DNA of 62,219 bases, counting the filler, from Sphacelaria rigidula (taxonomy: Eukaryota), in the NCBI GenBank assembly GCA_964200075.2. It is 8 parts of 8 records of this genome, joined end to end, with 100 filler letters (N's around TTAATTAATTAA, not from the genome) between each part and the next. Parts side by side here need not be neighbours in the genome. Positions count along the whole stretch, not along the records: positions 23,374 to 31,063 come from CAXNAA020013778.1; 7 more parts are not named here. One strand, given 5' to 3'. The translations under genes and the position numbers were made by a program. The notes under the pieces were generated by a model that saw only the letters and a list, made by a program, of their open reading frames with translations, did no database searches and had not been told where the DNA came from. Below are positions 5,540 to 61,272 of the stretch, piece by piece (the first letter of the stretch is position 1; every line of letters begins with the position of its first letter).

Positions 5540-6035
5540 GGGTGATACAGGTGCAAAAGGCTCATGACGCAGTATGGGGCAATGGGCTGTGGGAACATAC
5601 ATGAGGAACTGTGATCAAAGGAAAGGTGTGGACGATGAAGACGACAGAAATGTGCCAAAAGTGCGATGGTGCTAAAAAGGGAAATATCGAAATATTTCGA
5701 TATTTTGCAAGGAGGCGCACCAGGATGTACGTTATCACCCTCTCTACTTGAGGTATTCTTTGATGATCTGATACTAGCATTAGACATTGCAAAGCAAGGG
5801 GTAAAGTTGCTGAAGAAATTGGAAGCAGGGCAGATAATGATAATGATAATACTTTGATGCGGAAACTGTGCAAATGGCAGCTGGTAAAAGAATACTTGGA
5901 TGCAATAAAATTAGTGAGCAAGTTGTAAACAGTACAGATTGCAACAGCTCAGAGAATACTTGGATGCAGTGAAGTTGGTGAAGGAGTTCGGAACAGTACA
6001 GATTACAGCAGCTAGGGGAATTACTTGGATGCTCG
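5540..6035 (+). mobile_element. Decayed non-LTR (LINE) reverse transcriptase fragment
   Basis: QVQKAHDAVWGNGLWE (D.QKAYD.VW motif), FDILQGGAPGCTLSPSLLEVFFDDL (GV.QGC.LSP.LF motif), then ETVQMAAGKRILGC repeated as ~63-bp units; stops present. Confidence 0.8.
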
Positions 6036-7691
6036 AAGCAAATGAGTACGCCCCCCCCCCTTTTGAAGCCTTTCCCTTTTCCCCACCCGTCAGTGCCTGA
6101 AACAACGTAGAGTTCTCGACAATCCAACATGGTGACAGATACAGGCAATGCAGTCCAACACGACACAAATTCAGGGGCCAGGTGGAATGTGGGTGTGGCG
6201 TTCCAGTTTGGTCCCCCTCAAGGTGTGACGCAAACACTTCGGGTATGAGGTGTTTCGGATGGGGTGGGCGGACATGGAAGGAACATCTTGCTATTGAGAC
6301 AGCGGTGGTACGTGTGTAATGTTTACGGCCAGGTCAGAGCTCGAAGGGGAATGTGTCAGACGGTAGCATGGCGTCGGGTCGTCGGGTAGGGTACGATTGC
6401 GTAAGAGTGTGCGTGAAACGTACTCTCTCTGGGGCCAAGATTTGTACAATTCTGTAACCTTTTCAGCAGCCGTCCCCCTAGGTTCTCGAATCCTGTGAAA
6501 CTGCAGACATAATTATGGCGAAAATAAAATTAGACAATGCATGCTGAATAAAACTATAATAATGCGGTACGTTGTACTGAATATACGGAGACAAAGCACA
6601 GAAATGACAAGTGGTGAGGTCTTGCTGCAGTTGTACGGCACATGAGTTTGACAGCATAAGGAGAGCGCGCGTGTACCTACATCGTGCAGCAATATGGTTA
6701 CCTTTCCTACTTATATAGAATATCATTCAGCGGGGCGACTAGAATGCTACGCCCCTGGACAAACTGTCCAAGGTACCCGGTGGGTTTGGAAACGAACATA
6801 GTTTTTCGATTGTATGGACGTGACGTCTGAGCAATTGCGTTGCATTTGGAGGGGGCTGGCTGTACGCCGGTATTATCGATTAACAGGCTACGGAACCTGT
6901 GAGACCCTGCAGTAAAGATATATTTGGCGAATATGGCGAATTTTACTGAACATAAAATCGTGTAGTCGACAAACTTTGCCGGGGAAAGTTGGGTGAGAAA
7001 CACCTCGGTCAAGAAGCTTGTGCATTTCTTTTCTGATCATGCGGCGTTCTCATGGTAGGAAGCCGCGTTGTTTTGTGGCACAGGGTGTGCACGCGAGACA
7101 ACAACCAGCAAAACATATGGACCCCCCCCCAAGGGGGTTCAGCGACCACATCGGCGGAATGAGTTTCTGAAAACCATATGTAGGGTCTGTAGGAAATGTC
7201 AAAGGCACGGTATGTAGTCGCGCAGTCACCTTGCATGGTACGCTAGACATGCAGGGCAAAAAGATAAAGCAGGGAAACTAAGTCTGCGTACTGCACAAGT
7301 AATGGCAAGACATTGCACGAAAATATTTGTGGTTGCATGGTATCGAAAGCCCAGTTTAAAGCACCTGAACAAAGTAGTATCCAACTACGGTATCAGGAAG
7401 GGACAAGGTAGAAGTCAACTACGGTACAGGGTGCATCAAGAAGTCAACCTGTTGAATAGCAAACTTATACAATCGATCACCTGAGTGAGATAAAAATGGA
7501 GATCATATCAAGTGACACCAAGGCAATAACCCTTCCACCAGAATCCTATAAAAAAGTACACGGAATTAGCTATACCAAGCCAGATTGCTGACACTCCACG
7601 CCGGAACATACCGTCATGAGCAAACCGTTCATTGTTTCCTGCGTGTCCTCCCCAAAGCAATCACGTTCAGCGCCGGTCCCCTCATCGGGAT
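5958..7691 (+). repeat. Direct duplication, copy B of 122-1869
   Basis: Matches 122-1869 from acttggatgcagtg to ctcatcgggat. Confidence 0.95.
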
Positions 7692-7791
7692 NNNNNNNNN
7701 NNNNNNNNNNNNNNNNNNNNNNNNNNNNNNNNNNNTTAATTAATTAANNNNNNNNNNNNNNNNNNNNNNNNNNNNNNNNNNNNNNNNNNNN
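7692..7791. other. Artificial contig spacer (N-run with TTAATTAATTAA); identical spacers at 15483-15582, 23274-23373, 31064-31163, 38854-38953, 46643-46742, 54432-54531
   Basis: Seven identical 100-bp spacers carrying a six-frame-stop linker; the segments between them decrease monotonically from 7691 to 7688 bp. Confidence 0.97.
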
Positions 7792-23273: not shown

Positions 23274-24534
23274 NNNNNNNNNNNNNNNNNNNNNNNNNNN
23301 NNNNNNNNNNNNNNNNNTTAATTAATTAANNNNNNNNNNNNNNNNNNNNNNNNNNNNNNNNNNNNNNNNNNNNGAGTCTCGTCACTCCAGCGATGTGGCC
23401 CATTTGTTCCCTGCCTCAAAGGTGAGCCCCCCCGGGGGGGCGGGGGGACCCTGCGGGGAGGCGCATGTCGCCTTCGGCTCCCACCTGTGCAAGCGCAGGC
23501 GGAGGCTGCGGAGAATTTATAACCCTGACACAGACAGCATTTTCCCGGAGCGGCGGCACGTTTTACGCGGTGCGCTAGACGCACGAAGCAAAATACGGAT
23601 TTTGGACAATGCCATCGATCCGCCCTCAAAACGCAGTCCCCTCGGCCCAGACTGCGTGAGACGTCAGTGGATGCATGTGGTGACACGCAGATACACTCAC
23701 TTCCTGCTGGGTGGCTCCTGCCCCGGCAAACAAACACATCGATCCGGATTGCGCACACTCTGGATGATGTCATTCTACGCGGTATATATCTTGGTATCGC
23801 CTGTAGAGGTGCTCATTTCAGGAGACACGGCCGTGCAAGCGCTCTTAGAGCTTGTACGTGCTGAAACTTCGACCACATGTCATGTAGACTACAGACAACA
23901 ACCCCATCTTGCTGAATATGGGGTTGCGCGGTTTGTGCGTGCGTATTGGGACGAAAAGACGTCGGATTCTGTTCCGATTTTTTCTTTTATTTTCTTCTGG
24001 AGTAAGACTGTTCAGTAGTACCCTCAACTCTCCACACTTTCGCACTTGACTACAGTTTGAAATTTCGTTTGATGAGACCTTGTCGGGTCGCAGTGCTACA
24101 TGGATTTGAAGACGCGCGCTAATTTGCCAATTTCCACGATGTGTCATATTAGGCACAACTCGCGATACATCGTCAGCTAGAACGAGCTGAAGGAAAGTGA
24201 GCTTCTTAGGCGGACCAGCCTGTAAAGCACAAGAACCATTTTGCCGACACTTGAACGGACCAAGTTTTGTCATGCCGTGACTAGTGACTGGTGGTGTCAT
24301 GTGCCTCACCTGGTGTTGTGACGACCGCTGACCCTAACGTTTCCCCTCCCAATACTATTTTGGCCCCGATTACTTGACGCGGTAGCTGCTGCTGACTGTG
24401 GGAAGGGTCTCAAAGCCAGTACATGAATACGGGATCCAAAAAATAGACTGTGCGTTGCTGTGCGTGCCCCCAGACTACATTCATGCCACGCATCAAAACT
24501 GGTTATTTTCTGTACACAAGCATGGCTTGGCACC

Positions 24535-24605
24535 TATCCATCCAAGATCCATCCAAGATCCATCCAAGATCCATCCAAGATCCATCCAAGATCCATCCAA
24601 GATCG
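24535..24605 (+). repeat. 11-bp tandem repeat (ATCCAAGATCC)n
   Basis: About 6 consecutive units. Confidence 0.92.
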
Positions 24606-26840
24606 ATCACCACCAAGCAAAGGATATGACAAAGAGCTGCTCTTTGTCATATCCTTTGCCACCAAGCAAGATCGTCACTCACGCAACTGAGGATAAAACA
24701 CGTTTCCCGATTTGAGTTCCCCCGATCGGCAATCTTCATACAGATCCGTTTTTATGACCGCCCAATGTTACGCCGGGGATTACTGTCACGTTTCCCACCA
24801 CCACCCCCAAAATGAAGACGCGACGGAGTCTAAGAAGTGTGAAGAAGGTTATATAACAACTAAAGCGATACACGGCTGTATTATGTATCTGAAGCTACCT
24901 TTTCATCCCAGTTTGGCTCGATTCCACCCAGTACAGCTCACAAGCCAGCGATGGATATCCCTGAAAAAAGTACTGCATTTTTGTACAAGAAAGAAAGTCA
25001 TTTTCCAACATATCCGTCCTTCACGCGACAGAAGATTACTCACCACTGACGGATGTCACGAAGCCGAAACTCTACAGGCAGATATTACTAGACATCAGCC
25101 ATCGTTCAAGCCCTAGCAGACTTCAATTGAGTGTCAAAATAGTGCAATATCTGAAGTAGATTATCTTCACTTCACTCCAACTTCCCAATTTGTGACAAGA
25201 GTGTTCGCCGTCAAGAAGTGGAGGACTGGTAGGTACGCGTTTTTTCTACAGAGAGCAATTCGATTTGTATCGATAGCTGCCGTGTGCGTCGAGATATTTC
25301 CATCTCGGTGGCGGGTGTTATTAACATGTGAGGTGCGGCGTGAAAACCCATCGGGTCACACGTGATATCCACATCGAGCAGGTAGTAATTGCGCCACGTC
25401 CATTTGGTTTACAGCGTGGGGAATATCTTCTCCCGCAAGCATACATGCAACAATTAACACTGCCCGCCAGTGGGAAAGATGTTCCAGACATGTGCTTGTC
25501 ATTGTCGCTGGGGCGACGCATGAAGCCTGCCTACGGGATCGCCGCGCAAGGTCTAAAAGCACACTTGACTGATTGATTGGTTGATTATCTCATATTAGCT
25601 GCTTGCTACAATCCGACCCGAGGTCAGGAGCAGCAAAAATAGAACAGAATAATAAAGATAAAGAAGAAAGAAAGGACCAGAAAAAGACAGGAGCAACGGC
25701 TTCAGAAAGGAAAGAAAGGGTGCAGCGATAACAACAAAACAACACCACCACCACCAAGCAACAAGAACAACAACAAAATAACGACGAACAAACACATACA
25801 CAAACACAAACACAAGCACGAGCAACACAAAAATATGATGATCGCGCATTACGTAGCTGATGGCAACACTCCAGCTCGTGATCAGAGAAAAAAAAGGAGA
25901 AGGAAAAAAAGGAAAAAAAATACACTCACGGTCTGTCGATTCCTTGTGTCGTCAGTGATATTGTAAGCTGTCGGAAACGAAAGAGAGATACCACGGAAAC
26001 TGCTTCAGGATTTGCTTCGAAGCACACGTAGTCACATCGACTGTGCGGTGTGATGGGGACCGAAGTTTGGTGGGCAATAATGAAGGGTTAGGGACGGAAA
26101 ACATCATCTGATGTTCCCCCAGCGTGCAGCACTTGGAACCACTGTTCTGCGACATGGAGGATGGATTACGTGTTCCATCTTCATCACGTACCCAAACTCC
26201 AGCTCCCGCGCCTTCNNNNNNACAGGGGGGATGGATTACTTGTTCCACTTTCTCCCCCCCCCCCCCCCCCCCCCCCCACCATGACCACAGAATATATGCA
26301 CATCGGACCCCAGAAATTCGGTTATCGGATTTCAATCTTGAATGGCATGCAGAAATTGGTGATATCTATCGGTACGTGAAGGAATGCAGGCATATTAAAA
26401 GAAAACATGGTCCACATCTATGAAGATTGCAATAAACCGACTCATCATCGTCAATGAAAACCGTTGTCCTCAATTTTCACGATCGGTTGCTATCACACCA
26501 AATATTCGTGGCGGTTCGCCCGCTGTGCATGGCGCTATGAACGCCGCGTCACGACTGGAGTCCACGCGCGTGTGGTGGTCGTGTGGCACAGTATTCCATA
26601 AGGTTCTCTGCAACACCACGTCTTGATAATCATTTTCGCTTTATTAGTTGTTCGTTCCACAATTATAGTATCACGCATTATCTTGACATACAACCGGCGA
26701 TTCGCCCAAGGGTGAAGCTAGACTACCCGCCGTAGACGTCTGCACACAAGGGCGCACCGCATCAGGCACTCTACAACGTCCCCATCAACCCTACGCACGG
26801 GTTATAACTTCCGTCCGCTGAAGATAACTCCCGCGGTTAC

Positions 26841-29800
26841 TTATATATCTACGCAACTCATCTGCAAGAAACATGTCTTCGACTTTCGATACAGGTGCAA
26901 GCAAAACGCGAGTGCGTCGTCGTCGTCTTTGCCCGCTTCCGATGCCGAATCCTCTTCCTCCGAGTCGCTACACTCGGAGTCTGAATCTCCAAGCCAGATC
27001 CCGGCTGAATGCTTCGATCCGCCCTCTGGCGAACCATCTAGACCGCCGTCGCAACAACTGCGACTGGTAGGATCTGGTCCCGGATCCGATTCCCCTCCCG
27101 CTACCCTCGCCATCATCTCGCCATCTCGTCGGCAGCACCCCTCAACACGACTACTATCTACACCTGCCCCCGGGGCTTCCCTCGCTACATTCGCCTGCCC
27201 CCCGCCACGCAACGCCGCTGACCCGCCCCTTCCACGGTTCGCCGTGGATCCGCCCCTCCCCTTACGACGTCGGCGGAACGTATCGACATTTCCTTGCGCG
27301 GAATCACCTGCAGCAGTAGCGCCGGCCGCTGGGTCAAGGGGTGGCGGCAAAAAGCAGCGGGCCTGGCAACCGCAGCTCAGCGTACAATTCCCCAAACATC
27401 TGCAATATCGGCACCGGTGGCGTCTTTGCGCCGCCCTTTCCGGCTTGCACGCGCATCTGAGGGTTCGCACAATCCCGGATGTATCGACATACGTGTGACT
27501 CGACAAGTATGCAACTATGTTGTCCCGTGTAAGCTCCACCGCCCCTCTGCTCGCCGCCTTTACCCCACCCTTGTGATGAGTCTTTTTTTCTGGTTCAACG
27601 CCCCATCCGCGCCCGTTGAAGTTCACTGCGGGCATGCTCATCCCAAAACCCCCCTCCCCAGTATTCCAATACTGCGTTGGCCTTATCCACGTGCTTTTGG
27701 CAGGCGTCCCAGTCCGGGCAGCACCGGGAAGGCATGTGCCCATGTCCTATGGTGATGCACAGACGAATCTTGTTCATGAAAGACTCCAGATTCTGCCCGG
27801 TCGTGGTGAAGAGATGTCCAGGGCCCGCGGCGACCTGCGCAAATGCGGTTCGTACCTGAAAAAAAAAATCGTGGCCAGTAGCTTGACCCCCTCGTCCACC
27901 TCCACCCTCGCCGTCGATCACCACTATCGCTTTCGTGAACAGATCCGGCGTTCTCAGTGCCTTCAGAACGAATTCCCACATCTTGAGGAAGGGAATCCCG
28001 GATACACGCGGCAGGAAGTCGCAGTCAGCCAATAGATAGGTGAAAACAAACAGCACCACCTTTACAGGATGCGTCAGCCAATCATACAGTCCGTCGGGAG
28101 GCCACGCACTTTCGCTCCCGTCCCTCAGAGTCACGATGGCGCAGTACACCCTCTTCACCAATATGTACCGGGGGCCTCCGTTCACAATGCGTTTGACAGT
28201 TACCTGCACCGCGTTGGAGCCTTGGGGCTCGATATGCCCGCAGGACATGGCCAACAGGACAAGTATACACTGATCAGTATCAGTGGAAGTCACGAGCCAT
28301 TTCTTCAAATGCTTCTGAAATAACGTCCCGGAGTGAATGATGAAGTGCACTGCGGACATCTCTCCCTCACCTATGCCGGGTCCGACTGCGCTATGGATGC
28401 TCCGGTCAGGCCCCTTGCCATCACGCCACCACAACAGATGGGGTTGCAAGTCACCAGTTGAACGGTGCCCCCCCCCCCGCACGTGGTGAATATGTTTCTG
28501 CTGCCGCCGCTGTGGCCACGCTCCCGCTCTCTGATGACGCCGCGAGAGACGACGGTGGAGTCGTCGAGACCCCCCGTCGGCGCCGACACCAGCGCGTGGT
28601 GCCGTCCTCGGCACCGCCGCCGCCTCACCTGTTCCCCTGCCTGTCACCACCTCAAGATATGTCCGCGGGGGCGCCCTTGCCAGATCACTGCAATCGACAC
28701 CTCCGCCGGCCGCAGTTGCCGCCACCCGGCTCCGTGATTCGCGCCGCGCCAAGATGACTCCAGATATTGCCTTCCCCGGGCCCTGGTCGATGGAGAGCAT
28801 GTGTTGCATTGCTCGTCGAAGACGGGGAACTGTATGCCACACACATCTCGATTGCAAACCGGCTGACGTCCGTTCCTCTTCCTCATTCCACTAACCGGGG
28901 TAGGCCCTGCCGGCGCAGCACGCACCCCCCTGCAGCTACCATGATTCTCAGTGAGACCTTGAGAACTACGCCGTCGCGTCGCCAATCTCCCTCTTTCATC
29001 GCGCGTGCGATGTTCACCACGATCAGTATCAGGGGGCCTTGCCCCGCGGTCGGGATGAGTCACTAGCTCGCTGGCAGCCCCGTTCGTAGGCACCGGCGCT
29101 ACCTGCTCTTGCTCCGAACCCGCGCAAGATGAGCTGCCGACACCTTCAACTCTGCATTGGTCGCCCCCAGTGGCGGCAGCATATGTAGCTTTCTTCTTCT
29201 TCTTCCGCTTCGATTTTGACGCCGGCGCGCCTGCACGAGTTGGTCGCGAGGTGTATGGTGAGCCTGGTCGATTGTTACGGTGTCCCGACGGCGTGGAAAT
29301 CTCCCCAGGTGAGCCCCGAGTAGGGCCCCGTCTTGAGTTGTATGGGGATACGGACATCGGCGCTTCCTCGGGAGATTGTATTGCCAGCAGCTGATCCTCC
29401 CTTACGCCGTTTCTGTGCTACAACGCCACCTGCTGTTGTTCATGCCACGCTCCCCATACGCTGTCAACCTCCGGCTTATTCGCCGCGGTTCTCTGCCGCC
29501 TCAATGCACGTACGTCAGCATGTGGTGGTGTGCCCCTGCCGGAGTTGGGCGGTGTACGTCTCTTCTTGGCCTTGGCCGATGGAGTTGAATTTTGTACCTC
29601 TGGGGCCCTACCACCGATAGCTCTCCCGATTTCATGGGGGGTGTTACCCAAATCCTTGAGAGGTACTGTCGGCGGATTCCGTGGTAACACCTCCCGTACA
29701 TTGTTTTCTGAGGCCGAGGTGATGGACACTTCACGAGTCGCGCCTTCCCCGGCCGATCGAAATTTGAAGTTCCTGCCTTCTGCACTCGGATGGTCATTGC

Positions 29801-30071
29801 ACCCCTCCAACCCCTGCTTTTCTACAGATGCGCTATCACTGGACGCGAAGGACGCCTCCGGCTTACTGAACAGCACAGTCGCTGTATCGTTTCCGCAGAA
29901 ACAGGGTCTCAGCCAGTTTTGCGGTTTGACTCGTTCGCCGGTGTGACCCTCGGCGATGTCCCTCACATTATCGATCGGTGCTGCACATTCGGAGTGCGTC
30001 AGGGGATAGTCACTTTCAACCGCGGATGTGGCACGTGTCGGTCGAGATGGAGGCGACAGTGGTGTAGACAC
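26841..30071 (-). mobile_element. Decayed Academ(X)-like DNA transposon ORF: XPG/FEN/XRN-type PIN nuclease plus C-terminal tesmin/CXC-like Cys cluster
   Basis: Intronless, frameshifted frames with motifs in order: GPGIGEGEMSAV, VTSTDTDQCILVLL, YLLADCDFLPRVSGIPF (H3TH-like), PDWDACQKHVDKANAVLEYW..GRGW, CACK..CRYCRCLGNCTLSCGCQARC. No DDE domain or TIRs recognised. Confidence 0.6.
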
Positions 30072-32088
30072 TTCATTACCTGCCCGGAATAGACGGGAAA
30101 ATGATAGATTGACACAACGTATCAGTCGTGCAGTCTTATTTGTTTTTAGATTGCAAAAGACACGGGTTTGTGTGAAATGATGATATCCCGGAACACAGGC
30201 ATCCTCAATGTAGTTCTGATATAACTGTCATCAGCGGGAACAAGAGTAAAGTAGCCAGAGAAGCTGGGTCTTCAGCACCTCTACTTTGCACGGTAATAGT
30301 TCACGAGGGGTATCGGGGTGCTCTTACCTCAAGACCGATTGCGGTGCCGTATCTCACGTTCGGTCTGCCCCGGCCGGTGTCTCAAAAGTGCTCCAGACGT
30401 TGCACCCCAACCGTGAGTCTTGGGGATCTTTCACATCTACGGTCAGCGAATGCGCGGGGGAGTGGATGCGTGTAGGATCGTACGTCAATTATTTCTATTA
30501 CAGATATCTTCAATCGTGCGGTTATCGTGCTGTACTGTCCAACGATAACGGGGTTTTGGTTGCCGCGCCATCTAATGTCATGATCCTGCATGTGATCGTC
30601 GTACTAATGTACTGTCCAAGTTCACAACTCGAAATCTATGTCGTTTACGAGTCTGATTATCTCGCTCCACGTAGGGGGTCGTCCGAACCTGAGTGCAGGA
30701 TCCCAACATGCCATCGATGCGCAATAATAAGGCGCCAGGTGGGATCAATACTTTCCTTCATGGAGTACGTAACCCGCAGAATCACACATGACCCACGGCC
30801 GTATGTCGCTCATCGTACAAGACCGTCATGTAGTACTGTACATGCTGTTTCTTCTCGCACTCGGCGCTGGCCATACCCAAATATTGCACTTCACAGGCTG
30901 TACAATACATGCGCATTAAAAAGGTACCAGGTGGGGTCAATACCTTCCTTCATGGAATACCTAACCCGCACAATTACACATGACCCACGGCCGCATGTCG
31001 CTCATCGTGAATGCGGGTGGCTTCGACAACACCGTCACACAACTACAACGGTACTGTACATACNNNNNNNNNNNNNNNNNNNNNNNNNNNNNNNNNNNNN
31101 NNNNNNNTTAATTAATTAANNNNNNNNNNNNNNNNNNNNNNNNNNNNNNNNNNNNNNNNNNNNCACCCCTACAAAGCCGGGACGGAGCACGCCGGGTTTT
31201 CGCCGGACCGGGCTCGCAACCGGGCAGGGCGGGGGGGGGTGCCGTGAAGTCTGGCGCCGTGTGATTAATCCTTGAAGAACTTGTGTTTTGGTTTTCGTTG
31301 CGAAATAAGTGATTACCCCGGCCGTATTTATCTACATGCGCGGGTGAATCCCGTTGCTTTTGTGCCGGTGATCTCCCGTCCGTTCGTCGACGTCATGTTG
31401 TTATAGCTCTGTAGGAAGCACATCCTGGATAATGACTATGGATTCCATTGTTGAAAAGTGTACTGCGTACTGTACGGGAATTTATTGTCTAACCCACTAG
31501 ACCCCGCAGTCGATACTATACGCAGTACACTTTTTTGATGATGTACTGTGTTGTCATGATCCAGTGTGCGGTAGGAAGTGAAAAGTCTGTCGATCTATAG
31601 TGCATACACACTGCGCGTTTGATCGGTCTGACAGAGTTTCGACCACAGCTGTACTTCGACACAGTTAGTGTGGTTGTTGTTGTTGCTGCTGCTGCTGCTG
31701 TTATAGGGTTCCGTCGGATATCCTTCCAATTTTCCAGCCATATTTTTTGTTTTTTATTTTGTCTTTGCTCGTCTCTTTGTTTATTCCCTTGGTCCTTTGT
31801 TTGTTTGTTTGTTTGTCTTTTTGTAATTCCTTACTTCACTCTATTTTACTTCATCGGTTTTCAGCGAGTGTTTCAGTTTTGTTTTTTCTCGGGTGTGTCC
31901 ACCATGTGACCGCGGCTGAATCCTTGGGATAACAATGGAAGTGCGACAATTAACCAATCAATCGATCATTCATCCAATCAACCCTTTCATTCTATTTTAT
32001 TTTTCACGAACCATTTCCGTCGTCGATGAACTCTTCTGCAGTGGATGATGACTGTATGTATGTGTGTGGCTCGTTTGCTCATCTGCAG

Positions 32089-49182: not shown

Positions 49183-51376
49183 TTCAAGGGCAGGTCGGGT
49201 AGGGTATGTACTTTGAATACAAGGGTAGAATACCCGGGGGGGTTTTCTTTCATCTTTACCCAAGTTCTGGGTAGATTGGGTACGACCTCAAATACTCTAC
49301 GCAAATTTTGGATAGATTGGGTATGATCTAAATATTCTACCCGAACATTAGGTGAGCACTGTCAGCAATATCAATTTGGTATGACATCAATGCTCTACCC
49401 AAATTTGGGTAAGAACCGTCAGCCATACCCAGGTGTAGAGTATCACTCGGGAATGGCCTCGATACTTTACCCGAAACTCGGGCAAGTTGGCTACGATCTA
49501 TTATACGCTACCCACAGGTTGGATAGGCTGCACACGTCGGACAGATCAGCTCCCTGTCGCTCGAGTTAGTTGCCAGCGCAGCTCCCTGGTGAGCTATGAG
49601 AGCGGCATGAGCTACGCATGTTTTCCCTGGGTGAGCTGTGAGAGCAACATGAGCTACGCATGTTCGCTCTAGGTGAGCTACCAGCCCGTAGTCAATCAGC
49701 TCATATTCGCCTGGGTGAACTATGAGAGCTGCATGAGCTACGCACATTTGGCCTAGGTGAGCTACCAACCTGAAGCTCATCAGCATCCGATGTATGGTAG
49801 ATTGGGCACGATTTCGATATTCTACTCAAATGATGGGTAAGGCCGTGTTCTAGCACATCAACTTTCGATCGAAAACCAAGGGCCGTGGAATTGATTTGAG
49901 CGAAGCCGTTCATTTTTCGCGAGTTGGGTCGAAGCTCTCGATCGAAAAAGACGATGAAACTCACGAAGTGGTAAATGTTCGCTTGTCCACAGCACAGCAC
50001 TGTACTCTCTGCGCTGTATGCGTACAGTGTGCCTGAGTGTGTATGTGTGTGTTTGTGTTTCGTACAGTATGATGTAAAAGGGAAGCGGCCAACGTGCAGT
50101 ACAGATAGCGCAGGACAATGGGCTCTCAATGTTTACAGTGCGACGTGAAAAAGGCTCGAGCAACGTGCAGCTTTGTACTACCTGCACAGTATATGATTGT
50201 ACGCAAGACTGCCGTCCACCCCACCACGCAGTTCCGTCGCCGATCTGTACCATGAAAAAAGATGCTAAAGTTTTCACCAACAAAATAGAGCATAATACCT
50301 AACTACTGCAGTATATATATCCCTGTGCGCAACTCGTGCTCTGTGCTGCAGGGTTGTGGAGGTAGCTGATAATGTGTTGTGTGGGGATTGTATGGTTCTG
50401 TGAACGGGTGGTATCTGGCGTGGTGGTCTGTAAAAAAAGAGTGAGTTGCTCCTTCGTGCCTTTCCTTCGCATTTTTCCATCGAAAATGCCGAGGGCTGGT
50501 CGGGTACGGTATGTACTTTGGTATATTCGGGTAAAACACCCGGTTATTCACTTCACCCGAAGTTTGGGAAGATAGGGTATGACTTCATGGACTTCACCCA
50601 AATCTTGGGTAGGTTGAGGACGACCTCGAAAACTCCACCGAAAATTTCGGTAGAATTGGTGTGGTCTCAGATACTTTACCCAAATACTAGGCAAGTACAC
50701 TCAGCAATATCTGGATATTGACTACCGCCGCGCCCCGGTGGTGTAATGATCCGACTGTCGCCATTAGGGTGGAGAGAACGAGGGTTCGATTTCCGATGTA
50801 TGGGTGTTTCCTTCGGAGTATGTGATTTCCACCGTGGAAAGCGTGAGAACGTGAGTAAACAAAGTAGTCGACTCAGTTTGTTTGAGATGAGTAGACGCGG
50901 TACGGGAGTGCTGATAGTCATGACCCAATTCGCGAGACCAAAATGCAAGGCGCGTACCGGGAGAGAAATGGGTTGACCCCTTGAGACCACGGACTCATCC
51001 CGAGGAAGGGGAGAAGTTCGAAGTGCGACGAACAAAAACAAAGTATCACTTTGGTATGATCCTGATAAAAAGTGTTTTGTGTAATTTGGGCACGATTTCC
51101 ATACTCTGCGCAAAAATTGTTTAGATTGGGTGCGACCTTCAAGACTCCAAATTTGGATAAGCACTCTCAGCCATACCTGGGTATCAAGTATCATTTGGGT
51201 ATGACCTCAACACTCTACTCCAAAAAATGGGTAAACGGAGTGCGATCCAAAATACTCTACCCAAATCTTGAGTAGATTGGGTGCGATTTTAAGCTTTGCC
51301 CGAATGTTTGAGTACTAAGAGTATGAATTTTTACTACACCGAGTATTAGGTACACCATACTCGACCTGCCCTTGAA
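49183..51376. mobile_element. Non-autonomous TIR element with internal TACCC/GGGTA subrepeats and nested insertions
   Basis: ttcaagggcaggtcgggtagggtatgtac ... gtacaccatactcgacctgcccttgaa; second left end near 50489. Confidence 0.68.
50725..51042 (+). mobile_element. tRNA-derived SINE
   Basis: A box TGGTGTAATGA, B box GGTTCGATTT, body shared with 19820-19970 and 18920-19045, A-rich tail; host repeat resumes after it. Confidence 0.68.
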
Positions 51377-51649: not shown

Positions 51650-51895
51650 AACACCGCGAGCACGATTCGTGTGCTCGAGTAATTGATTTTTCCACCACAA
51701 GCAATGACTCGAGTGGTCGACCTCTACATGTTTACTACAACGAGAAATGACTTGAGTACTCGCCCTACAAAATTTCAGCACCACGAGCGATTACTCGAGT
51801 GCTCGGCGTAATAATCTTTCCCACAACGAGCAATGACTCGAGTACTCGACATATTGATTTTTCCTACCACGAGCAATGACTCGAGTGCTCGCTCT
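51650..51895 (+). repeat. ~41-bp tandem repeats (ccacgagcaatgactcgagtgctcg); further copy at 52825-52930
   Basis: About 6 degenerate units. Confidence 0.8.
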
Positions 51896-54322
51896 ATTAA
51901 TGTTTTGACGGTTAGGACAAATCAACTCGTGAGGCAACTCAAAGTCATCATCTCCATGAATAAATCATGCGGTTCGTACATCAGTTGTAATTCACACAGT
52001 CAACCCTTCTCCATGACTCAAGGCGTGAATGGCTTGTACATGCACGCCATGTGTGACAAGTTCGACGTGAGCGCCTGTATATGTTTCCCACCTTCGGATC
52101 AATGCGGGACCCACGTAAGTCGTAAAGGTTAATTAATCTGCAGTCATGGGGCCTGAACCACACACACTTTCCTCAAACCTGTAATGCGCGCAAGATGCCT
52201 GCACTGCACAATATGTTATATGTTATCCACCCTCGAGTGAATGTGGGACCAACACTCGGCAAAGAGCTGAATTCTGCCATTTCATGTTCATGGGACCTGT
52301 ATCACGCGTATTTTTTTCTCATGGGTATGGGGCTGCATATGTGTTATCCACCCTCGACTCAGCGGACCAATGGTTTATACAGCATGACTGCTTGCGCATC
52401 ATGGCGAGTCAACATAACACCACACCTGGCAGGTACAAGGAGGCGCGGCAGTTCGCCGCGGCTGTTCAGTACCGTGCACGAGCGGTACCTCTGCGTAATG
52501 GTGGAAATATGCGTTCTTCCAATCAAGAACCATCGACGGCGTGGTCGTATGCTGTTGTGTTGGGACCTCACAGGAAGAAAACACGCAATATTGTACTGGA
52601 AACACCTGTATGAATTGCTCCGCCGTGCCGGTACACGAAGCACTATTCACTTTTATGTGCTCCAGACTAACCGACAGCGAAGGGGATGTGGCCGGTACCA
52701 TAGTACGGGGAAAAAACATCGAGGATGTTGTAGATTGCACATCGTGAACAAAGTTGCGCAGTGGTGTACGGTGGTTCACCGCGGTTGGCAATTGCTGTGT
52801 AAAAACAGACCTAACCGTGAATATTTCCCACCACGAGCGATTACTCGAGTGCTCGACGACCTCCGAAAGCAGTCCACGAGTAGCCGAACAAGTGCGAGGG
52901 CCACGAGTCATACTCGTGCTCGACCGACGTGTGACTCATTTCGAGGAACAGAAAAGAGATACGTGGCAGTCACCTCCAGAGTGTTTCACAAAATGAGACT
53001 GTAGAGGAGCAAGTTTTCATGATCTCTAGCGTAGTGGAGGTATGGTGAACTCCAAAGGACCAAGATTACATTACAGTATATAGTACGCGATACCTGTAGA
53101 GGGTACATATTGCTGTGGAGGGAACTCAGGTCTGAGGTCCGGTGCAGGGACAGACCTTCCTCATTGAATTTCGGATTGATTTCAAGCAAGGTCACTTACA
53201 CCGTGCATAGCTGATGAGCAGCTGAGCTCGAGCGTCGTGTTCCTGGATTGCCGTTGCGATGCGTTCCCCAAGTTGACGTCTGATTCCGTTCGGCTGTGTG
53301 TCAAGCCTTCCCATGCGCCTGTACCAACGGAACATCTTCGTCCCTCTTCGGCTTCAAACACAATCGCTCTCGCCAACATAAGCTACCAAGTCAGCTTGGC
53401 ACCTTGTCTGCCTACAACGGCTACGTTGGGACCCAGCGAAACAGGTGTGCGAATCTCTACGGGCATGACCGAAGTATATGACTGAAACACAGGACACCTC
53501 CACAATTCAGCGCGACCAATAACACACAGATATCCACAGCACAAGTGGATCATGCCTAGCACTAGCTCTTGCCCATCTATTGACAGTTTTGTTGTTTGCA
53601 GCAATCTGTTTGGCATTCAAACATGGACGGCAGTGTGTGTGTGTCACATACGCTGCTCCCGATGGAGTCGTGGACCATTGGCGTGCATGTTGGACGGCTG
53701 ATAGAAATCACCGTGCTTCATTCAATTGGGGAACCCTTCGACTGAGAACCTCCCTCAGCTGGACTCAGATGGACGATGCCACACTTTGGTGTGCTGAGCA
53801 CGACCTGCTCCTCTTTCCAGTATCTATCGATGCTAGGGCTTTTGAGTGCTAAGGGGGAATCGTATACGAGAAAACTCAGAAAAGTACCAATTACGGAAAT
53901 TGACAGAGGGTGTGAGTTAGTGTTTTGATTAAAAAACACTCAGTTGTAGGCTCTAGCGTAATGAATTGGTGAAAATGAAAGAAAATGATACCTACATTTG
54001 TTCGCGAGATCGATTTCAATGGCTTCAATCGATGAAAAGTATCCATGGGTCAGAGCCTGGTGGTGGGTAGTCGCAAGACCCCCCGAGGACCGGTCAGTCC
54101 GTAAATTGTTCGAGACTGAATGCACAGATGATTTCTGTTTCGGAATGTGGAGCGGACGCCTAGCTTCTCCCGGTCTCCAAACTGTGGGATCAAATGTTCA
54201 CTGGGATGGGCGGGCACGCGAAAAAACTATTCAAAATTGTTGACTGCGAAAAAAATACGAAACTCCCGTTGTTTAGCTCGAAACTATCGCACCACAGTCA
54301 ACAGTCACAGTCCAGCGGGCAA

Positions 54323-55272: not shown

Positions 55273-56572
55273 ATTCGCCGTTCAGTCCACCATAATAAGT
55301 CTGTTTCATTTCCCATTGTTCTGACTACAACCATTAACTTCCTCATCCTTATACATATATATATATATATTATAGATGTATAAAATATATATCGCGACTC
55401 GCGAGAGCGCGGCATTCCGCCCACGCTTCCTTACGCCCGCGCGCCAGAATATGGGCGCCCCCCGAGCGGGGGAGCTCCTCGCGAGTCGCGCCTGCATTAC
55501 ATTACTATTATATCGATTGCTCAGCCGCGGTACATGATCGTAGACGAATCTCTCTGGTTGTCGCCGCTTGGTGCAAGGTTTTGCGGGAAGAAATGCGTCG
55601 AGAATTTTGAATTTCCCCTCGAGGTGCCTGTCAACGCCAACAAGAGGCTGACAAGATCATTTTACAGTACGGTCCGAAGAGCGCAGTAACTGCCTCAGTG
55701 AACAGGAGTATCTTAGACATATTCAGCGGTATACGGTGCACAGTAGGTTTGCAGGAGGTCATGAAATACATATGTGTGTGTCAACCATGTCGATGTAGTC
55801 CGCATATACCATCACTTCACTGAAGTGCAGGTCCCACGACCGCAAAACGTAAATTCACGGTTGACATGTGTACAGTAGACAACATGGAGCCTTCTTTTTC
55901 ACGATGTATTACTATGGTTTTGCAGCGCAGCGACGCGTGTCACGCCAGTGCGCGATCGGGAGCGTGAGCCCGTCTTTTCCTGCTCCGTCTGTGGGGGGCG
56001 TTACACGTGTGGTACATTTTCGTGGACGAATCTCCCTGACTATCGTCGTGACACGCGAGCCATGTCGATGTAGTCCGCAAATATACGATTTGTTTGGCAT
56101 GCAGACCACACTACCGCAAAACAATCGTGAAATTCCAATATTGATGAGTCGTCACCGTTGACGTGTTTATGCATAGAACCTCGTTTTCTGAAAGATATAA
56201 TGTTTTGCAGCACCGTATACGTGCCGGTCACTGTTGTTTGTCTACACAACGGACGGTGCGGCAAACGGCAACAAATCACATATGTGTGCTTCGTGGCGAA
56301 GTCAGAGAGAGGGAGCGGTGTAGTACTGCGCCGCTTACTCATGAAGGCTTCTGTTGTCCTCGTGTTTCCGGGAGTTGAGCCTAATCATATTTCAATATAC
56401 CTCACCGGCACATGCAGGCGTTGTGGTACGACATGGGATGATAGGGTCGGAGAACAAGACAGGCAGTACATCATTGTTTCAAGAACGATGTCGAACCTTA
56501 GTACCCTAGGGTATATAATACAGTAATATCAACATCACCCACAGCAATACTACCAAGCACAGCCGCTATCCC

Positions 56573-57890
56573 ATGTCCACCAACTCCTCCAGCTTCTCAA
56601 TGGTCGGGGAGGGGGACAGATCCAACAACTCATTCATGCAATGGGAGCGGCCAACACCGCCCCGCCAGTATAAGGAAGGCCGAAGAAATGCAGGAGAAGC
56701 GGAAGATCAACAGCTGGCTCTCGGACGAAAACAAGGCACTCTTCCACATTCTCAGGGGCGGGGTCTCCATTTCCATTCCCATGTCCGATGGAAACATGAA
56801 ATTCAAACTCCGCGAAGTGGCCGACACCAACCGGGGCATGCTGATCGACCTTCAGACGTTGACCGACGTAGACGTCGCCAACTTCCACTCCCCGGTGCCA
56901 CCTGGCATAAACAAACCTACTTTCGCGCCCGAGGTTCACGTCTTCACATTCACCAAGGCGTCGGCCACCATCATCAACTTCGGCACCAACGACAACGACG
57001 GTGAGCGGGATAGGAGAGCTTTCATCACAGGTGAGCTGACGAGGATGGCGTCGGCGCTGGACGCGTACACCGGGAAAAACTACGCCGCTCTACACAGAGA
57101 CGAAGCGGCCGTAAAACCCGCATGATTACCGACTTCAACCACGACATCAACGGGTGGCTGACAGAATGCAGGGACGCTGGGCTGAATCTGCGCATGGAGT
57201 CTCCCGCTGCCCCACCCGCCAACGGGCAGGGCCCCGCGGCGCCGGTACCAGCGTTCACCCGCGTGAAGATGCTCACCGCTGACGGCCACCCCAGCAGCCT
57301 CATTGGACGCCAAAACTCCGGGCTCACGGTAGCAAGCTCACCCGCGCAGCCCGCCCCTAAGACAGCCGTCAAGCGAAAGGCGCTCCCCGACGCGGGCACG
57401 AGCAAGGCGGTAAAACGCGTCGCTCCCCACCCTCCGTCGTACCCGCCCCAGTGGCTACACCTCACGCCACCGAACACCGATTTCAACACGAAACTGGCGC
57501 CATGGGCCCCACCGGCGGGCGTCTGCTTACGAGCTTGGCAGGGCCTCATGTGCCCACGGGGGCGCGGCTGCCGCCTCCCGGACCACACCAGAAAGCATGA
57601 AGCCGTCGGGGGCCCTCCCCCTCCAGCCGTCAGCCGTTCTCAAGATAACTCCAACAGCCCCGACCGCGGCTACGGCAAAACCACCAGTACCAGCGGCACC
57701 GGCGGCCGTAGCGAGCACAGTGGCGCGCTTTTCCCAGAACTTCGGCGGAAATGGCGGAGCCGGGCGGGGCACCCGAGGGTGCGGGCACCGCCAGTCGACG
57801 GGGCCCACCAGTCTTGGGGGAGGAGGAGCACCGGTCACTCGCCCAAGCCCCCCAACCGGGGTCGGTGGCGGCAAGCTTCTTTCACGGTGA
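56573..57890 (+). pseudogene. gag-like ORF1 with CCCH-type finger, frameshifted
   Basis: Consecutive frames 56573/56688/57122/57597; CLRAWQGLMCPRGRGCRLPDH (C-x8-C-x5-C-x4-H); Pro/Ala/Gly-rich tail. Confidence 0.55.
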
Positions 57891-58311
57891 GAGCAGAAGT
57901 ACCGACGCATGTAGCAACCCTAAAGCACGTCACAGCGGTATATCGCGTAGTCCCATTCCGCATTACCCACGCCCGACAAAAAAGTCGATGACCAACCCCA
58001 CCAAGACGTACTGTAACAAGCAAATGTCGGCAGGGTACACTAGATTGGACGATAGAGCGCACACGCATGAAATTTTCGATGACATCACCGCCCCGCGCAA
58101 TGACACGAAAAACATCAAACACGCGAAAGATGGCCCGCACGACCACAGTAACCGGTCGGTTCTTAGGTCCAACGGAACGTACGAGCGTGCACAGGTAAGT
58201 CAGCAACAAGGTCAGGCAATCCGCCTGTCCATGACTAACGAAAACAACAGCAGTACACGCAGACACAACGTCAAAACCACTTCGCACATCCCCACACACA
58301 GGAGACGTGTA

Positions 58312-59095
58312 GAAGCAGATCCGGCGGTCGGCAGTTACGCACAGGTAACCCTGAACGTCGGTAGATTGGACGATAACAGAACTCATGCTCCCCGTGAAAT
58401 TCGAATGCCATCCAGTGCAGAAGAAGACCCGGCGTTCGGCAGTTCCGAGGGAACCTTGAACAACGACACGTCTATGTTGACGAGCGCAAAGCGTGCAAAG
58501 TCGACAACCAGTAACTTACTAGGAACAAAAGAACATAGAGGTGCAGAAGAAGACCCGTTGTTTGGCAGTTCCGAGGGAACCCTGAACAACGACACGTCCA
58601 TGTTGACGAGCGCAAAGCGTGCAAAGTCGACAACCAGTAACTTACGAGGAACAAAAGAACATAGAGGTGCAGAAGAAGACCCGTTGTTTGGCAGTTCCGA
58701 GGGAACCCTGGATAAGGGCACGCCCATGTTGACGAGCGCGAGGCATGCAAGAGTTCGAACCAACCATCATCGCTCAGATGAAGACCCGGCGGTCGGCAGT
58801 TACGCACAGGTAACCCTGAACGCCGGTAGATCAGACGATAACAGAACTCATGCTCCCCGTGAAATTCGAATCACAACAAGTGCGGAAGAAGACCCGTCGT
58901 TCGGCAGTTCCGAGGGAATCCTGAACAACGGCACGTCCATGTTGACGAGCGCAAAGCGTGCAAAGTCGACAGCCAGTTACTTACGAGGAACAAAAGAACA
59001 TAGAGGTGCAGAAGAAGACCCGTTGTTTGGCAGTTCCGAGGGAACCCTGGATAACGGCACGTCTATGTTGACGAGCGCAAAGCATGCAAGAGTTC
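58312..59095 (+). repeat. In-frame higher-order tandem array of 7 units (A-B-B-C-A-B-C)
   Basis: Unit starts 58312, 58420, 58546, 58672, 58777, 58885, 59011 (108/126/126/105/108/126 bp); shared core encodes E[AE]DP..GS..[GV][TI]L. Confidence 0.93.
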
Positions 59096-59252
59096 AAAAC
59101 AGCACCTGGTGCGCTAAAACAAAACCGTTGCCTAATAGGTACAAACAGGTAGCCCCAGAAAAGGCTCGCACACGTCAACGATTGAGAAGCCCACAGAGAA
59201 AAAAAACAACACCGGCAGTAAGGAGATCATCGGTAGGCGAAATTTTGGGTCG

Positions 59253-61272
59253 GTGAGAAACTCACCTCCAGTTGGGACCACACGCCAACGAAGCCCGACC
59301 GGATTCACAGAGCACCCAAGCAAAAACTTCAATACCCGGTGGAAACAGCAACAGCAAGGACTATCGAATACACACATAGATATAACAGAAATGAAACGCA
59401 CCATCACAGACCTAGCCGCCACATGCACGAGTCTCGTCCGACTTAACCACGGAAGAATCGGGGACGTAGCGAAGGGGCTCGGCGGCACTCTGGTGTCACC
59501 GCCGATGAACCTGAGAAACATCCACGAGTATTTCGGAAACCAAAAACACTTCCCTCGGATACGAGAACTCCTGCACATGATTGGGTACGGAGTCCCAATG
59601 AACACATCGTCTCGCGATCCCGATCCTCGAGGAGCGCTGAAATACGGTAATCACCGCAGTATTGAAGAACATATGCCTCAAGTCTGTGAGAAGTTGGTAG
59701 AGGATGTACGAAGGAACATATGCTTGGTGTTTGAAAAAGGGGCGGCGCTCGAAATCAGAGGCCTCAGAATGGCCCCGCTTGGGGCAGTAGTAACTAGCAA
59801 AGTCAGGATTATCAACGACTTTTTGGTTGATCCCAGCGTACCGAAGGGAGAAAGAGGCGGCCTCAACCGGGACACGATTGTAGACGAGGTGCCGCAATGC
59901 CTCTGCGGAGAGGCACTGCCAAATCTACTTAATGAACTCCGGAAGTGACGTGTCAAGTTTCCGGATAGCAGAATCTTACTGTCAAAGGCGGACGTCTCGA
60001 GTGCATTTATAAATGTCAGGATCGCGCCCGACCAGGCGCAGAGCTGCTGCTACGTGGTAGACGATGTTTTAGTAGCAGACTGTCGGCTCACGTTTGGATG
60101 GACGGGATCCCCCGGCTACTGGGGACTTTTGTCACAGGCCAGTGAACATGCACACTGCAATACCACAATACTCGACGCCGTAATACTCGACGAAGGGAGA
60201 GAGATGATGAAACACGTGACCATAGTCGAGCCCTGGGAAGAAGGGACGCCTACAAAGGTCCCGCCCGACGCTGCTATTCCCCCGGCAAACGGGGGGGGAC
60301 TGCACGACCCCTTTTTCGTTAGCGTGTATGAGGGCGTCTATATTCTAGCAAGGGTGCAGCACGGCGCGCAAGATAAATCGGCGCTACCCGCATCAGCTTT
60401 GCTAGCCTCAGATCACATCAGACTGTTCGGTCCCGGAGAGCCAGGCGAGATACCCATCCTCGCACCTAAAAAAAGTACAAACTGGGACACCAGTGTAGAT
60501 GCGTTGGGATTCACGATCAACACACACACACCATGAGGATAGCGATCACTCGAGAAAAAGTCGAAGCTATCACTGAATCGCTGGAGCGCGACTGGCCCGC
60601 GGGCGAGACACGCGCAACCGCGCAAGACATACTTAGCATAGCTGGAAAACTCTGGAACCTCACGTTTGTTGTAGGACCCGGAAAATATTTCGTATGGCAA
60701 CTACTACGCCTCACCGACCTACACGTAGCCGCAAAAAAGAAACGTCAGGTGAGAGGAACAGTAAACCTTGGCTGGGAGTTTCACGAGAATATCGCCTTTT
60801 GAAAATGGGCTATTGCGGAGAACCTGGTGCAACGCGGTGAATCGCTTAGCGCCCCGTCCTTTGCCCACACCAAACGCACCGCATCTCGTAAATACATCTC
60901 CGACGCGAGCCTGGCAGCGGTAGGACGGTACTGCCCAGAGCTCGGGTTATTTGGGCGGTATTCTTCACCACATGAGCGCACATGCGAACTGAAGAGAAAA
61001 GCAAAAGATAGAGAAACCTGTGCGATCACCATCAATCTACTAGAACTGTGTGGAATGTTCATGACCGCCTGCGCTATCCAGATGTTAAAGGGCGAAAGGC
61101 CCACGGAGAGAAGGGACCCAATCCTGACGCGCGGCGACAACTCGTCGGCTGTGCACTGGGTAATAAATGCGGGGAATCAAAAGACAGACGTGCCGCCCTC
61201 CTGATGCGAATGATGGGTCGCATGGAAGTCGCCACCGGGTGGTGTACTATAGCGAAACACACACCGTTTTAA
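59253..61272 (+). pseudogene. Reverse transcriptase-RNase H pseudogene (DIRS-like)
   Basis: YGNHRS, APLGAVVTSKVRIIND, KADVSSAF, RLTFGWTGSPGYW, catalytic site read as YEGV, LGFTINT, AGKL; RNase H SDAS, INLLEL, GDNSSAV, AKH. Confidence 0.85.

Follow-up and report, generated by a model that had tools for sequence, protein, structure and literature searches.

The window analysed here, 62,219 nucleotides from the brown alga Sphacelaria rigidula (GCA_964200075.2), very probably holds the 3′ remnant of an Academ-type cut-and-paste DNA transposon that is common in brown algae. The window joins eight unrelated contigs, sorted by size and each about 7.7 kb long, and the true genomic context of the element is limited to positions 23374-31063. 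These represent contig G000:C13778 of the 244-Mb assembly (27,214 contigs) that was searched, and apart from the element, this contig contains 1.4 kb of further sequence and nothing else. The copy in the window is a dead, internally deleted, non-autonomous transposon, which could only have moved with the enzyme of another copy. The full element carries one spliced gene, which encodes in order an N-terminal low-complexity region with a Zn motif, a DUF6589-type DDE transposase, a 5′ nuclease of the FEN superfamily, a CXC cysteine cluster and an acidic tail. An earlier note, made from the window alone, had suggested an AcademX-like transposon that carries a nuclease. The relatives of this copy bear that out: they have an upstream DUF6589-type DDE region, terminal inverted repeats (TIRs) and short target-site duplications (TSDs).

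The motifs of the copy were located on the minus strand, all at the places and in the order noted earlier: GEGE (28371-28360), STDTD (28287-28273), ILVLL (28266-28252), DCDFLP (28026-28009), SGIP (28002-27991), PDWDACQKH (27717-27691), KANAVLEYW (27684-27658) and GRGWG (27614-27600). They are followed by the nine cysteines (27455-27354), an acidic tail at about 26990-26900 and a stop codon at 26841-26843. The motifs are spread over two minus-strand frames (27598-28890 and 26841-27746), and the copy is frameshifted as proposed, by one base in a run of G at about 27655 and by indels at 27911 and 27848. The interval 26841-28857, to which the feature had been assigned, does enclose the motifs, but the element is larger and runs from 24763 to at least 31063. 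Similarly, that interval is free of introns but the element is not; a GT-AG intron lies at 30327-30080, and full copies have two more. Two of the motifs are present here without being typical of the family. DCDFLP is a private mutation of GCDFLP (G in 95 of 110 public proteins), and at the third position of GEGE, 30 of 56 proteins have A and 20 have G, giving GE[AG]E.

The right boundary of the element was placed at 24763, where its likeness to other genome copies ends. Contigs from two public runs diverge from the reference at 24762 and continue into different flanks. At the other side, relatives extend at least 420-460 bp beyond the position that matches the contig edge at 31063. Within the element, one position of the window (28730/28728) aligns to both L101:1180 and L101:7089 of a close relative with 86-91% identity; therefore, 5,908 bp have been lost from this copy. 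In L101, the lost segment contains the DDE transposase (L101:3483-5720) and the N-terminal half of the nuclease (L101:5975-6436). This deletion explains why no DDE transposase had been visible in the window, and the nuclease recognized there turns out to be a C-terminal half only. Accordingly, tblastn of the window detected the N-terminal region and the nuclease C-half alone, and a Pfam scan of its frames gave no match at all, TCR, XRN_N and the XPG families included. The C-half (27600-28407) is 38% identical to residues 1353-1609 of the public homologue P0170 (E 3e-47) and retains five of the seven active-site acidic residues, and the N-terminal remnant (28680-30161) is 35% identical to a 1059-aa N-terminal frame of L105 (E 4e-45). 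The copy cannot mobilise itself: it has no transposase, its nuclease is short of two of the seven carboxylates, and it contains frameshifts and a stop codon. The N-terminal region also contains a W-x-x-C-x2-C...C-x2-C motif (L105:3352-6528, minus strand, residues about 484-503; window about 28850-28800), and the deletion falls right behind it. Its best Pfam match is Zn_ribbon at E 0.27, and it presumably resembles a RanBP2-type finger.

The element belongs to a repeat family. The nuclease segment has at least 158 matches in the genome, most of them with scattered stops, and this count is a lower bound from 145 of 370 scored candidates. The transposase region has at least 90 matches (85 of 181 candidates scored). 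A conserved readthrough stop, considered for the many copies with "1 TAG", was rejected because the stops lie at scattered positions. A longer relative has public homologues with E values down to 1e-96, and every homologue with an organism name is brown algal. The ends of the family (CAGTGTTWCGCC) pair left with right over 12-17 bp only, with CAGTG...CACTG inverted, and the terminal pattern has 162 exact matches in the genome versus one for the reversed control.

TSDs were surveyed in 80 fetched loci, which had been selected for a nuclease, transposase or terminal match and are not a random sample; they provided 13 left-right end pairs in 12 loci. Five pairs are flanked by exact 4-bp and one by exact 5-bp duplications, and two 4-bp and two 5-bp duplications have one mismatch, giving 4 bp in 7 and 5 bp in 3 of the 13 pairs. 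Exact 3-bp duplications and duplications of 6-10 bp were found in none of the 13. The expected length of 3-4 bp thus holds insofar as 4 bp is the commonest, but 5 bp also occurs and 3 bp does not. None of 20,000 permutations reached six exact (mean 0.17) or ten near-exact duplications (mean 0.75). One locus, L051, has two right ends 272 bp apart (7896 and 8168) with a TSD at the inner one only, a pattern suggesting that one element landed in the terminus of an older one. The top shared 6-mer near the ends is AGACGC, found at 14 of 25 left ends (mode 43-44) and 11 of 35 right ends (mode 54), for example at window positions 24816-24821 and at L031:1382-1387, and it lies about 10 bp deeper inside right ends than left ends. 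The element ends may follow a short/long rule through this spacing. However, the placement of AGACGC is not above control, since an equal level was attained in one of the three controls.

Thirteen of the fetched loci hold the transposase and both nuclease halves. In C4632, the left end is linked to all three, and in L052, L063, L065 and L124, both ends are linked to transposase pieces. With the left end of the window's copy at least 420-460 bp past the contig edge, the full element would be about 12.7 kb or more. The two-ended copies are mostly deletion derivatives, as is the copy in the window. The composition of the full gene is also apparent in public proteins. P0170, an 1802-aa Nemacystus gene model, contains the transposase, both nuclease halves and the acidic tail in one protein, and transposase and nuclease are likewise joined in P0171 and P0172. 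P0170 is without the CXC cluster, but P0171 has it. Full copies have two further introns, read from sequence, that flank the transposase core. The donor and acceptor of the 248-nt intron at 30327-30080 are kept in all 11 relatives aligned over the whole stretch. In two public runs, which we guess to be RNA (no run is recorded as RNA, and 15-19% of words matched), contigs join directly across the intron and leave it out; those of the other two runs do not. Such skipping suggests that family members, rather than the copy in the window, give rise to spliced transcripts. Unlike the others, one subfamily (L034, L037, L116 and L120) has no intron separating the transposase from the nuclease.

The upstream frames of the relatives carry DN(C)D, GDEET, GDWH and DERQE motifs, which correspond to a D-D-H-E series. 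L034 passed the cut-off for DUF6589 (E 1.6e-7), and PF20231 was found on 11 of 19 public homologues, the named ones being from Ascophyllum, Scytosiphon, Laminaria and Ectocarpus. The neighbours in the Atlas are DUF6589 clusters of molluscs and basidiomycetes (0.93-0.94). The subfamily of the window's copy (L104:3673-6123, minus strand, residues 332-365; L108, L038, L049 and L102) has 270 additional residues inserted into the transposase, among which a single EsV-1-7 Cys motif scores weakly (E 1.4e-4 at best, below the cut-off). Beside another element copy, a 761-aa frame (L035:7138-9420, minus strand) contains tandem Cys/His repeats that look EsV-1-7-like by eye.

The nuclease was modeled from the 925-aa frame of L032 with 73 sequences. 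The model has 351 residues with a predicted local distance difference test (pLDDT) score of at least 90, and its N and I halves are separated by a disordered spacer, rich in Ala, Gly and Pro, that can reach 300 aa. Sequence profile searches of the PDB gave no nuclease, only chance matches. Seven carboxylates and an arch Lys are common to XPG and XRN1, according to the available text of PMC5499597. Counterparts of the seven were tallied in 198 public proteins, which had been found by likeness to the element family, and are conserved in 86-100% of those in which the site is covered: D63 (30/33), D108 (47/47), E517 (53/56), E519 (49/56), D549 (73/81), D551 (71/83) and D636 (96/109). The nine cysteines counted at 27354-27455 follow a pattern that is also found in 26 stored proteins, and Pfam TCR does not match it. 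P0087, a divergent (28%) homologue from JGI with GEGE, DTD, GCDF and CXC motifs, may lie outside brown algae. Over the C-half of the nuclease, the ratio of nonsynonymous to synonymous substitutions (dN/dS; 26 of 30 loci, those with at least 200 codons) is 0.21 between subfamilies (148 pairs at dS >= 0.8) and 0.59 within subfamilies (135 pairs at dS < 0.25). Judged by these ratios, the nuclease appears to be under selection in active lineages and to decay in copies.

A mechanism can be outlined for the family, which operates in the manner of AcademX and is probably a member of that lineage. By analogy with DDE enzymes, the transposase would bind the ends, excise the element and join it to the target with a 4- or 5-base stagger. 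Filling in of the stagger would then give the target duplication; the ends and the duplications are observed, and the chemistry is borrowed from the analogy. The fused nuclease fairly likely acts on 5′ DNA flaps or on the non-transferred strand, trimming them at transposon ends or insertion gaps. Such trimming could also explain the variation of the TSD between 4 and 5 bp. An RNA substrate seems unlikely, and some other substrate a little more so. The CXC cluster probably aids DNA binding. TSD length has been linked to an accessory enzyme in the accessible part of PMC10045372.

Several observations weigh against the assignment to Academ. The TSD is absent in 3 of the 13 end pairs, one of which uses the outer, second right end of L051. 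None of the 12 two-ended elements holds the transposase and both nuclease halves, in contigs that are short. DUF6589 is below the cut-off for L049, L104 and L102, and most scores are under that of Pfam. With regard to an RNase H-type DDE fold, the best match of the transposase model is the P-element transposase (PDB 6p5a), a weak one below the caution level of the tool, with Z 5.5 and a root mean square deviation (rmsd) of 6.8 over 240 aligned residues; Foldseek gave no match for this model at E <= 0.001, and the model is partly unreliable, with pLDDT below 50 in the region of the first catalytic Asp. No Pfam match for the nuclease was obtained in its 73 members. Finally, we take DUF6589 to be the Academ transposase, and no paper was found that pairs both terms.

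The identity of the nuclease leaves room for a different reading of the same transposon, in which the domain is an XRN-type 5′-3′ exoribonuclease, with an origin by capture independent of the XPG-like domain in animal AcademX, and acting on RNA such as that of R-loops or silencing RNAs. The earlier remark that the GEGE motif is XRN-like had some basis. All three Foldseek matches to the PDB at E <= 0.001 are XRN1 or XRN2, with EXO1 and FEN1 at E about 0.5, and the best 22 matches in a viral structure library are XRN-family or unnamed, with no FEN among them. The model aligns with XRNs over 352-364 residues, including Xrn1 over 356 (Z 16.4, rmsd 4.3), versus 275 for EXO1 (Z 16.1, rmsd 3.8), 237 for XPG (Z 12.9, rmsd 3.6) and 234 for FEN1 (Z 13.1, rmsd 3.8). 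In profile comparison, the nuclease scored 41.4 against 16 giant-virus XRNs and 30.3 against 11 FEN1-type sequences, and the alignment with XRN is collinear through D..IH, K..Q..R, GEGE, D.D, G.DFLP and the W.L.YY helix. Of the basic 5′-phosphate pocket of XRN, the Lys and the first Arg are kept and Gln stands at K+4 in 40 of 45. However, the residue behind the conserved Arg is Thr in 31 of 45, not the second Arg of the pocket; EXO1 practically ties with Xrn1 by Z; XRN is as near to FEN1 (39.1) as to the element nuclease; hmmsearch with the nuclease profile ranked FEN1 sequences first; and identity to XRNs is 9-19%. Moreover, the C-half resembles unnamed Atlas clusters from chordates and arthropods (0.92-0.95), and in one of these 14% of the members carry TCR; ordinary AcademX C-halves would be expected to look like this. 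Within an overall range of Z 12-16 for the FEN superfamily, XPG is not the nearest subfamily, and the label XPG looks doubtful. The structure model fits XRN1 and EXO1 equally, and sequence profiles do no more than lean towards XRN; the domain is best described as a distinct FEN-superfamily branch with such a leaning rather than an established XRN. The exoribonuclease reading is thus regarded as unlikely. Equally unlikely is its wider form, an Academ lineage of the brown algae's own with an XRN-type nuclease, marked by GE[AG]E, GCDFLP and C-terminal helices like those of XRN, the first such fusion to a transposase, which may act on RNA or R-loops in transposition or against silencing. Alternatively, all AcademX "XPG" domains could be an unrecognised XRN/EXO1-like family, which, if true, would bear on the origin of XRN.

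The element could also represent a separate, unnamed superfamily, or a third lineage of Academ beside AcademX and AcademH, with the DUF6589 transposase in common. Its short TIRs, its spliced gene and the 5-bp length in 3 of 10 TSDs, with none of 3 bp, would suit such a lineage, and no animal or fungal protein was reached by sequence. Yet the commonest TSD of 4 bp is within the AcademX range, the Atlas links both domains to animal clusters, and a fused transposase, FEN-type nuclease and Cys cluster is what we take to be the AcademX layout; a separate lineage is therefore considered improbable, though worth keeping in view. An endogenous nuclease gene of a giant virus (nucleocytoplasmic large DNA virus, NCLDV) is hinted at by the NCLDV XRNs among the best viral structure matches and by the weak EsV-1-7 motif. 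The NCLDV matches are 9-18% identical, no better than cellular XRNs, and a search with the protein of the window's copy found no relative in the 2.9 million viral contigs of IMG/VR. The TIRs, TSDs, transposase fusion and spliceosomal introns speak against a viral gene as well, and the copies bounded by TIRs and TSDs already contradict it, which makes this origin extremely improbable. Just as improbable is a nuclease gene of the host or a copy that was domesticated, although purifying selection between subfamilies and spliced contigs in two runs could be cited in favour. The copy in the window has a stop codon, three frameshifting indels and no N-half, and more than 150 copies are dispersed in the genome; the 5 matches to XRN_N and the 3 to XPG_I in the host genome all lie on other contigs, and no XRN_N match falls among the element copies. 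The outcomes that had been named as fatal to the transposon proposal, namely a single-copy host nuclease, a viral gene, or a lack of copies with transposase and TIRs, were not encountered, and an Academ-type transposon remains the preferred explanation.

Coordinates of the element and of the artificial spacers in the window
Feature	Position	Strand	Remarks
Seven artificial spacers, N44-TTAATTAATTAA-N44	7692-7791, then every ~7.8 kb		Not genomic; parts across them unrelated
Spacers bounding the contig of the element	23274-23373 and 31064-31163		Artificial, outside the element
Whole visible element, internally deleted Academ-type DNA transposon (very probable)	24763-31063	-	Left end beyond contig edge at 31063
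Right TIR, CAATGTTACGCCGGGGA	24763-24779	+	One substitution relative to the family sequence CAGTGTTWCGCC
3′ non-coding part of the element	24780-26840	-	66-91% identity with other copies
Acidic tail and stop codon of the polyprotein	26841-26990	-	P0170-P0172 likewise end in acidic stretches
Nine-cysteine CXC-type cluster, putative Zn/DNA-binding	27354-27455	-	
C-terminal half of FEN-superfamily 5′ nuclease	27600-28407	-	I-region, H2TH-like part and later helices
One-base frameshift in G run, boundary of nuclease and CXC frames	27650-27660 (about 27655)	-	
Two small deletions (8 + 1 bases)	27848-27911	-	About 21 codons shifted out of frame; from alignment to L046; same sites in public runs
Deletion junction	28728-28730	-	5,908 bp absent relative to L101
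Remnant of N-terminal low-complexity basic region	28680-30161	-	Stop at 29418-29420; start of Cys motif
GT-AG intron, 248 nt, 5′ part of the element	30080-30327	-	

Other parts of the window contain repeats of their own. The first contig is bounded by a 1.74-kb direct repeat (93%; 122-1869 and 5958-7691) and has a perfect 120-bp inverted repeat (1-120/709-828); these could be a remnant of long terminal repeat (LTR) or DIRS type, or a tandem duplication. GC-rich long frames with internal repeats and repeat arrays of about 41 and 43 bp at 56502-59945, 49268-51292 and 51679-51896 are probably other repeat elements.

Academ is among the least studied groups of eukaryotic transposons, and no role is established for the nuclease of AcademX. 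The superfamily reportedly goes back to Kapitonov and Jurka 2010, and its host range is said, by Kojima 2020 (Mob DNA 11:15), to comprise animals, Chondrus and fungi. AcademX occurs in animals and the red alga Chondrus, and a CXC cluster is a C-terminal feature of its proteins. No report of Academ in brown algae was found in the literature, although Repbase, Dfam or closed papers could hold one. Sequence searches for animal AcademX proteins gave named matches in brown algae only, and the placement in AcademX is put forward as probable from the layout. The text, Table 1 and supplements of PMC12477816, a curated library of Ectocarpus transposable elements, contain neither "Academ" nor "XPG" as far as they are accessible. 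That curation was aimed at abundant families, and 51 DNA/Unknown families appear without a description in the accessible part of PMC12477816. Ectocarpus proteins of the element family exist, though absent by name from the library. A widespread brown-algal lineage would extend Academ to stramenopiles and explain many gene models annotated as "unnamed protein".

Among known systems, the P-element transposase (PDB 6p5a) is the best structural match of the transposase, at the weak rmsd given above, and the P element produces TSDs of 7-8 bp; the TSDs and ends of the present element differ. The nuclease shares with XRN1/XRN2 (PF03159) and with EXO1, FEN1 and XPG (PF00752/PF00867) a FEN-like PIN fold, the arch Lys and an identical order of the seven acidic residues. 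It differs from them in its low identity and lack of a Pfam match, its fusion to a transposase and its long spacer. AcademH, which encodes a helicase and makes TSDs of 9-10 bp according to the available part of PMC10045372, resembles the element in its DUF6589-like transposase, with Basidiomycota clusters among the Atlas neighbours. However, none of the 13 end pairs has a TSD of 9 or 10 bp, and the partner enzyme is a nuclease, not a helicase.

AcademX is described in the same part of PMC10045372 as the nuclease lineage, with TSDs of 3-4 bp. Like AcademX, the element has TIRs and a mostly 4-bp TSD and encodes, in one protein, a DDE-type transposase and a FEN/XPG-superfamily nuclease with a Cys cluster behind it, and no helicase family was detected among the scanned frames of the fetched full-length relatives. 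It differs in its brown-algal host, in having 5-bp and no 3-bp TSDs, in TIRs of only 12-17 bp, and in its GE[AG]E and GCDFLP motifs and a fold nearest to XRN1/EXO1 and further from XPG. At an estimated length of about 12.7 kb, it also differs from the Academ elements of bivalves, for which the accessible text of PMC10294476 gives an average of 5.6 kb over 100 consensus sequences. The 1802-aa gene model, the defined ends and the mixed 4- and 5-bp TSDs open the way to testing the proposal, made in the available part of PMC10045372, that TSD length depends on the nuclease. What is new, within a known and poorly studied superfamily, is thus the brown-algal host range, the short TIRs, the 5-bp TSDs and a nuclease that leans towards XRN and EXO1.

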